A DNA stretch of 64,000 nucleotides from the NCBI GenBank assembly GCA_041737015.1, contig JBGSSO010000381.1, positions 1,304 to 65,303 on the forward strand, given 5' to 3'. Under the pieces are notes generated by a model, which ran no database searches, was not told where the DNA came from, and saw nothing but the letters and a program-made list of their open reading frames with translations. Positions 59,568 through 61,230 of this stretch are shown here, piece by piece (within the stretch, counting starts at the first letter, position 1; each line of letters begins with the position of its first letter). The translations under genes were made by a program, and so were the position numbers. The stretch is from Nitrospirales bacterium (GTDB taxonomy: Bacteria; Nitrospirota; Nitrospiria; Nitrospirales; UBA8639).

Positions 59568-60539
59568 CTACACACTTCCCCCCTGAACGACCTCAGGGAT
59601 TCGTGGTCCTCCTGAATAGTTCCGCAAGATCTCCCTGGCTCGCTGACCATCGTGGTCCATTTGACTCACGAGGTTCTGGGAATTGGCAAACACCATATCC
59701 CCTCGCACTCTTTCAATAAAATGCACTGAAATACCTTCTCCATATAGCTGAAGAGTCTTATCAAACATATGCACTTCCAATAAGCGTTCCTCTTCAGAAA
59801 ACGTCGGCCGCGTGCCGATATAGGCAATGGAATCCAGACATTCCCCTTTCAACACTGTCAGCGTGGCATATACACCATCCGCAGGAAGAACACGATGCCC
59901 GGGGAGTCGAAGATTGGCCGTCGGCCATCCAAACTGTGTCCCTCGCTTCTCACCGGGAATCACAATCCCCTTTAACACATAGGGGCGCCCCAAACATTGT
60001 GCACCTTGCCCCACGTCTCCAGCTGTCAGGCATTTGCGGATGCGCGTCGAACTCACCACCTCCTGCCCCACAATTACGGGCGCTATCGGCTCAACCGAAA
60101 AATCTGCTTGTGCCCCCAATTCAATCAGATCCTTCACTCCTCCACTTCGGCCCTTACCGAATACAAAGTTTTCTCCAACAAACAGCTTTCGGATCCCAAG
60201 CCCGTCATGGAGAACCTGCCGAACAAACTCATCCGGCCTCAGACTGGCTAACTCCCTGGTGAAAGGGAGAATCACCAGCTCCCCGACTCCTAGACGTTCA
60301 AAGAACGCTATCTTTTCATGGTCATCAGATAAAAATTTATGGACAGATCCGGGACGCAACACCTCGACAGGATGCGGAGCAAAAGACAACACCATAGGAT
60401 ATCCAGTGACCTGTCGAGCGCAATCCACGACAGCCTGGACAAGAGCACGGTGTCCCAAATGCTGGCCATCAAAATTGCCAATGGTGAGAACAGGACAGGA
60501 GGCGGGACGAACCGTCGGTAATCCTCGAGAAATCTTCAT
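59568..60539 (-). CDS. ribF: Bifunctional riboflavin kinase/FAD synthetase
   Basis: [30 protein letters not shown]. Confidence 0.96.
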
Positions 60540-61230
60540 ACACCATCACGATTAAGGAGACATGCAGCCTCTTTGGCAAAATATGTGAGGATCAGGTCCG
60601 CCCCTGCGCGTTTAATCGCGAGTAAACTTTCCATCATCACCAAAGCTTCATTGACCCATCCTAACTGCGCACCAGCCTTGATCATGCTGTATTCCCCACT
60701 GACTTGATACGCTGCCACGGGAACAGCCACAAGTTCACGAATTCGTCGAAGAATATCCAAATAAAACAAGGCTGGCTTCACCATCACGATATCGGCACCC
60801 TCCTGAATGTCCAGTTCCACCTCACGCAACGCTTCCCTCGCATTGGCTGCATCCATTTGGTAGGACCGTCGGTCCCCAAAAGATGGACTCGAGAAGGCCG
60901 CATCACGAAACGGGGCATATAACGCCGAAGCATACTTGGCGGAATAAGCCATGATGGGCATTTCAGAGAATCCCTGTTGGTCCAATGCCTGTCGAATCGC
61001 GGCAACCCGGCCATCCATCATATCGGAAGGGGCAACCATATCCACTCCCGCTTCCGCATGACTCACCGCCATTGACCAGGCATGGAGGCAATCGGTTCTT
61101 GCTTATTCTCGCCAAAGGTCACAAACAAGGGGTAGATAAAATCTGCCGGAGTCAGCTGAGTCTCCCGGACCATTCGGCGAAGGGATTCATGCTGGCGCAA
61201 TCGACGTAATCGGTGAACGGGGAATCCCAT
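60536..61230 (-). pseudogene. hemB: Porphobilinogen synthase with an internal out-of-frame deletion
   Basis: N-fragment 61230-61063 ([12 protein letters not shown]...PLFV...SMPGQ); C-fragment 61072-60536 ([27 protein letters not shown]); roughly 95 aa of the usual middle is absent. Confidence 0.88.

Follow-up and report, generated by a model that had tools for sequence, protein, structure and literature searches.

In the window, by which we mean the whole 64,000-nucleotide stretch that was analysed (C165:1304-65303), hemB is split on the minus strand into two ORFs that lie in different frames, as is apparent from both the sequence and the ORF list. The features of the locus, all on the minus strand, are:

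59568..60539, minus strand: ribF, encoding a bifunctional riboflavin kinase/FAD synthetase; intact (323/323 aa, 100%), with a start that overlaps the hemB stop
60536..61072, minus strand: C-terminal hemB remnant from the ORF list, 178 codons covering residues 150-327 (MAVSHAEAG...NRDGV); Pfam ALAD
61063..61230, minus strand: N-terminal hemB remnant from the ORF list, native codons 1-55 (M...SMPGQWR) and then TGA; Pfam ALAD
61064..61074, minus strand: deletion junction, the sole retained copy of the 11-bp repeat CAATGGCGGTG, placed by alignment to the intact allele at both breakpoints and by a repeat table across relatives
61132..61222, minus strand: divergent tract of about 90 bp in the 5' portion of hemB, with 10 SNPs relative to the same-species strain, 9 of them synonymous
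61239..61631, minus strand: CBS-domain gene directly upstream of hemB; intact
61699..63270, minus strand: cobA-hemD fusion, encoding uroporphyrinogen-III methyltransferase/synthase; intact, 523 aa (523/523)
63267..64000, minus strand: hemC, encoding porphobilinogen deaminase; cut only by the window end, 316/316 aa on contig C165

The N-terminal ORF ends in ...ASMPGQWR, followed by a TGA codon (61065-61063) that is created by the frameshift and lies 7 nt past the ATG (61072-61070) of the C-terminal ORF; the hemB TGA at the far end of the latter overlaps the ATG of ribF (ATGA, 60539-60536). Both ORFs are matched by the Pfam ALAD profile (PF00490), the N-terminal one over profile positions 2-51 (E 8e-15) and the C-terminal one over positions 146-315 (E 6e-89), with approximately 94 profile positions absent between the two remnants. 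A continuous frame of about 320 aa spanning the whole ALAD profile is absent at this hemB. When compared with the intact gene from the same species, the N-terminal remnant is identical to HemB at 54/55 residues and the C-terminal remnant is identical to the intact allele at 539/539 nt. The SAKYAS and VMVKPA lysine motifs are both kept in the 178-aa C-terminal remnant, in which they align with the corresponding segments of 1W1Z, and the lysines of these two motifs constitute the active-site pair in established ALAD enzymology. With a third of the barrel missing, these retained motifs cannot function. Moreover, the metal-site/active-site loop (the DxCx[CD]xYxxxGHCG region) lies inside deleted residues 56-149 and is lost. 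Judged from its sequence, the hemB remnant is a pseudogene that is predicted to give no enzyme.

As an intact reference we used a JGI metagenome contig from the same species (3300082556, Ga0675950_000257; L015), which encodes an identical CBS protein next door and has flanks that are 98.9-99.9% identical to the window at the nucleotide level. The hemB gene of this contig is intact and encodes 327 aa (L015:3402-4382), and CAATGGCGGTG occurs twice within it, at gene positions 157 and 446 (L015:3558 and L015:3847), giving a spacing of 289 bp. The window aligns perfectly with this allele through the left copy of the repeat and again from the right copy onward, with one copy left at 61074-61064. 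The lesion consists of one repeat together with the 278 bp between the copies, a total of 289 bp (3 x 96 + 1) that shifts the frame, and the alignment offsets across it differ by 289 bp, which is the repeat spacing. The same 289-bp offset is obtained against three other species of the genus at 90-93% nucleotide identity. The residues that are lost, W56-A149, form a part of the TIM barrel that includes the metal-site motif DVCIDEYTSHGHCG.

The original prediction, which was made from the window alone, described a hemB broken in two frames by a clean deletion of about 0.3 kb, and both statements are borne out, the first by the agreement of the ORF list with Pfam and the second by the alignment to the intact allele, which gives an exact size of 289 bp. 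It also read an 8-bp microhomology, CAATGGCG, at 61074-61067; this sequence is present as described, but the repeat is really the 11-bp CAATGGCGGTG at 61074-61064. In all, 55 native N-terminal codons are kept instead of the 53 originally counted, with Q53, W54, and R55 lying inside the repeat. The metal-binding motif sits in the missing part, as had been expected, but the motif of this lineage is DVCIDEYTSHGHCG (Cys-Asp-Cys) and not DxCxC. Finally, a repeat-mediated deletion had been proposed when only one repeat copy could be seen, and this idea is supported by alignment to the closest intact hemB, in which the repeat is found at both breakpoints and is perfect (11/11) within the species.

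Only two exact direct repeats of at least 11 bp are present in intact hemB, CAATGGCGGTG being one of them, and 15% of codon-shuffled versions of the gene hold one or more exact direct repeats of at least 11 bp. Because the pair of breakpoints falls exactly on one of these two rare repeats, the lesion carries the signature of a short-homology deletion, and not of chance. The repeat copies match at 11/11 positions within the species and at 10/11 or 9/11 positions in three other species of the genus, where the right copy is CAATGGCGCTG (10/11, of which 8 exact) or worse. A CTG to GTG change in this species, which turns MALSH into MAVSH, stretched the exact homology from 8 to 11 bp. The perfect 11-bp repeat therefore appears to be specific to this species, and the Leu-to-Val change may have predisposed the gene to deletion.

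Intact HemB from the same species can be aligned over its full length with 1W1Z (E 7.5e-122), the ALAD from Chlorobium (Prosthecochloris) vibrioforme, which is the closest solved structure and is followed by 1B4K from Pseudomonas aeruginosa. The lost loop DVCIDEYTSHGHCG aligns with TDVALDPFTPFGHDG of 1W1Z. Across the genus, the HemB metal motif DVCIDEYTSHGHCG is a hybrid of Cys, Asp, and Cys, differing both from the three-cysteine zinc type DxCxCxYxxxGHCG and from the Asp-rich type seen in 1W1Z. The locus resembles those of other porphobilinogen synthases (HemB/ALAD, PF00490) in that both remnants match the family strongly and stand in the usual hemA-hemC-hemD-hemB cluster, and it is unlike them in that 94 residues, including the metal-site loop, have been deleted and the frame is broken.

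At 9 of its 10 sites, the divergent tract beside the junction agrees with L003, another species of the genus, while five other relatives agree with the same-species strain. No other SNP cluster within 15.6 kb is as dense, and 8 or more SNPs are found in only 0.4% of 110-bp windows. The tract ends at 61132, 58 bp before the junction, and those 58 bp match the same-species strain and differ from L003. Taken together, the tract looks like a short recombination import from a related species. Given that the junction lies 58 bp from this strain-specific SNP tract, the deletion is on the strain's own haplotype. Donor-type sequence running up to the illegitimate joint is absent, the L003-like tract having stopped at 61132.

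The position of hemB is orthologous to that in its relatives: the order hemA-hemC-cobA/hemD-CBS-hemB-ribF is the same as in the same-species contig, and the flanks align with those of relatives in the genus. Complete copies of the CBS gene, ribF, tilS, and hpt are present in the same genome, as is a complete hemE (contig C254), and hemL is interrupted only by the end of contig C186. The hemA gene is split over contig ends (approximately C165:65520-66453, which lies outside the window, and C143:3-341), with about 28 codons missing between the two parts, each of which is 100% identical to the same-species protein; this split is an assembly gap and not a lesion. The expectation that hemC and cobA-hemD are intact holds, both being full length in the genome, and the search of the genome for another hemB, which had been proposed alongside it, has been carried out. 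This search for ALAD matches in the 95.6%-complete genome finds no second hemB, and no trace of the deleted 94 residues is seen anywhere in the assembly. Among relatives, one hemB is present in 30/30 genomes, in 29 of which it is full length and in one of which it is cut only by a contig start. At about 160 further Nitrospirales hemB loci the gene is almost always full length, with the few shorter ones being located at contig ends.

Searches for heme acquisition find no HemS/ChuX-type heme-utilisation gene in the genome, and the eight matches to TonB-dependent receptors are all far below the TIGR01785 heme-receptor cut-off. A separate observation concerns the end of the pathway. Canonical ferrochelatase (PF00762) is absent in 13/13 searched genomes of the genus, complete ones included, and is present in 8/8 genomes from other genera of the order. 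At C254:209-2889 the intact hemE is followed directly by a gene for a 504-aa HemY/CgoX-like oxidase, a predicted function for which the label comes from an N-terminal FAD-binding motif, and there is no hemH. With ferrochelatase lacking across the genus and no hemH after hemE, the terminal iron insertion of heme synthesis in marine Nitrospira is unaccounted for, and our literature search found nothing on heme synthesis in these organisms.

The assembly from which the window is drawn comprises 4.64 Mb in 405 contigs, with 95.6% completeness, 4.5% contamination, and an N50 of 16.5 kb; the window's own contig is the longest (66,453 bp) and the shortest is 1.6 kb. The named relatives are marine Nitrospira or Nitrospirales MAGs, with Ca. 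Nitrospira neomarina and Nitrospira sp. T9 falling in the same protein cluster. Where contig ends overlap exactly, the overlap length peaks at 141 bp (7 pairs, none longer), which points to a de Bruijn assembly of the MEGAHIT type with a final k of 141. De Bruijn assemblers of this type use graphs with k from 21 to 141. Since a k=141 graph cannot collapse an 11-bp repeat, the junction must be carried by reads, and graph collapse at the repeat is impossible as the origin of the junction. Over window positions 43505-65150 (21.6 kb), comparison with the same-species strain gives 65 synonymous and 31 non-synonymous codon differences, the small indels (44146, 48912/48940, and 49947-49949) are all intergenic, and gaps are present in 0/14 neighbouring genes. 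The assembly therefore looks base-accurate around hemB. When 238 orthologues were checked against 400 kb from a relative in the genus, hemB was the sole gene with a large internal deletion that leaves two frames, and systematic chimeric deletions were rejected as an explanation on the basis of its uniqueness among these 238 orthologues.

The junction sequence has no matches in JGI metagenome contigs or in species-representative genomes. Exact look-ups find no record of the 178-aa product, two such look-ups for neighbour proteins are likewise empty, and the only entries for the 167-aa and 55-aa products come from the 66,453-bp contig of this genome itself. Logan contigs from run SRR23867506 match the intact JGI strain and not the window. 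The same protein cluster (P0012) also contains a 178-aa "porphobilinogen synthase", which was considered as a second case and set aside because its gene is simply cut by a contig start. In a 90% protein clustering, the 55-aa stub (61066-61230) is grouped under an unrelated 1159-aa Logan protein, and this grouping looks like a clustering artefact. We also considered, and rejected, a functional split or recoded hemB, given that the 94 missing residues are irrecoverable by any frameshift; none of the 47 tRNAs has a stop-codon anticodon, so that no suppressor tRNA exists.

Several other lesions are seen in this genome. A TAG at 46397-46399 splits a gene that joins YyaL/DUF255 and aldo/keto reductase segments and that is a single ORF of 1236 aa in the 99%-identical same-species strain; the codon there is CAG, so that the TAG is a C-to-T nonsense mutation in the genome under study. 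Internal stops are also present in genes that are otherwise well conserved, namely those for a class-I fructose-bisphosphate aldolase (TGG to TAG, C301:5002), an ABC exporter (TAA, C135:3893), and a DsbA-like thioredoxin (GAG to TAG, seen at two overlapping contig ends, C349:29 and C140:7624). Orthologues that look broken number 3-5 of about 238 here versus 1 of 185 in a reciprocal test on the relative. Broken genes are thus few, at about 1-2%, a share that is perhaps slightly raised, the numbers being too small to say.

Overall, these results suggest that hemB in this marine Nitrospira-type genome is probably a fresh null allele produced by one in-vivo deletion between the 11-bp direct repeats. 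Slipped-strand mispairing, or some other RecA-independent event acting on short homology, would have removed one repeat copy together with the 278 bp between the copies, leaving a stub of 55 aa and an out-of-frame tail of 178 codons. With a C-terminal piece that still shows 100% identity to the intact allele, and no other damage in the cluster, the lesion would be very recent. A cell with this allele would make no porphobilinogen, and hence neither heme nor siroheme, and would have to be fed by its neighbours; alternatively, the allele may be a short-lived variant in a population that also holds intact copies. Counting against this reading, the junction is seen only in this contig, a nitrite oxidiser null for hemB is physiologically implausible, and the searches for HemS/ChuX genes and heme-type TonB receptors gave no recognisable heme uptake. 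Nitrospira marina, a cultured relative, has two complex III, several cytochrome bd and bd-like oxidases, a cbb3 oxidase, heme catalases, and a siroheme-dependent nitrite reductase, and is also a cobalamin auxotroph (bioRxiv 10.1101/2020.07.02.185504). With heme and siroheme enzymes of the N. marina type, loss of porphobilinogen synthase should be lethal without cross-feeding.

A library or assembly artefact, in which a chimeric fragment arose when amplification switched templates at the 11-bp repeat and the organism's own hemB is intact, seems to us somewhat unlikely. Such a fragment might have reached a k-mer count of 2 through both of its mates or through a duplicate and might then have become the sole path at low coverage, with the intact arms trimmed as tips. 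Template switching in vitro and slippage in vivo leave identical repeat signatures, the junction appears in no independent assembly, and a lesion that would be lethal is accompanied by an otherwise intact pathway and by a remnant without decay. The assembly is, moreover, fragmented, and its 405 contigs, N50 of 16.5 kb, and 4.5% contamination mean that coverage may be modest and that one chimeric fragment could in principle bridge a gap in coverage and yield the same contig. Nevertheless, the junction lies on the longest contig of the assembly (66 kb), on which the 14 neighbouring genes are all base-accurate, and no other such deletion is found among the 238 surveyed genes, so chimeras are not pervasive. 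A k=141 graph also needs real k-mers across the junction, which is linked within read length to the strain-specific SNP tract, and an intact path from the same strain should outcompete a single chimeric fragment if assembler pruning rules operate as we infer.

If the deletion is real, it could still be harmless should a second hemB reside on another replicon or in the 4-5% of the genome that escaped assembly or binning. The completeness of 95.6% leaves some space for such a gene, as does the shortest contig of 1.6 kb, given that shorter pieces may have been left out, but we regard this idea as very improbable because 30/30 relatives, complete genomes included, have exactly one hemB-family match, because the relatives' gene stands in the same hemA-hemC-cobA/hemD-CBS-hemB-ribF order at the loci examined, and because the assembly bears no trace of the deleted 94 residues. 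A distinctly unlikely variant of the in-vivo deletion is that it accompanied the recombination of foreign DNA from a related species into the 5' portion of hemB, one end being resolved at the 11-bp repeat by homology-facilitated or short-patch illegitimate recombination. This proposal draws on the tract of about 90 bp, in which 9 of 10 SNPs are in the L003 state, on its distance of 58 bp from the junction, on its standing as the densest SNP cluster in 15.6 kb, and on a rough chance of about 1.5% for such closeness between tract and deletion. The 58 bp between the two, however, match the same-species strain and not L003, patchy SNP clusters occur elsewhere, for example in hemC, so that the proximity may be coincidence, and no donor has been identified. 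The most far-reaching reading, in which the deletion allele predominates in a living nitrite oxidiser that is newly auxotrophic for heme and siroheme beside cobalamin and lives on leakage from neighbours, its lesion having arisen together with a short import from a sister species, is in our opinion unlikely.

The single in-vivo deletion between direct repeats, which we favour, would have different meanings depending on the status of the allele, and the weight of the finding depends wholly on whether living cells of the strain predominantly carry this allele. If it is real and fixed, the very first step of pathway loss would have been caught in a heme-demanding chemolithoautotroph, and cross-feeding of heme or porphobilinogen in the community would be implied. 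Should it instead prove to be artefactual or a minority allele, the case cautions against calling auxotrophy from a single broken gene in a MAG. Either way, this is a clean and fully resolved 11-bp-repeat deletion whose repeat arose through a Leu-to-Val substitution specific to the species.

The type of event is well known, being an ordinary, textbook direct-repeat deletion that kills a gene. The E. coli lacI deletions of Farabaugh, Albertini and Miller are reportedly the classic case of slipped-strand, RecA-independent deletion at short repeats. The hemB lesion is like them in that its breakpoints fall on the two copies of a short repeat, one of which is kept, and in that the deletion is as long as the spacing between the copies, here 289 bp; it differs in being known from a metagenome assembly alone and in having a recombination-like SNP tract adjacent to it. 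Heme auxotrophy is itself known in aquatic bacteria (bioRxiv 10.1101/2021.01.11.426183). In known heme auxotrophs the whole pathway is absent, whereas here the damage is new and confined to one gene, the other pathway genes are intact, and searches for HemS/ChuX genes and TonB receptors give no recognised heme uptake. If the allele is fixed, this strain would nonetheless resemble both those heme auxotrophs (bioRxiv 10.1101/2021.01.11.426183) and the cobalamin-auxotrophic N. marina in depending on its neighbours, in this case for tetrapyrroles, as its genus already does for cobalamin.
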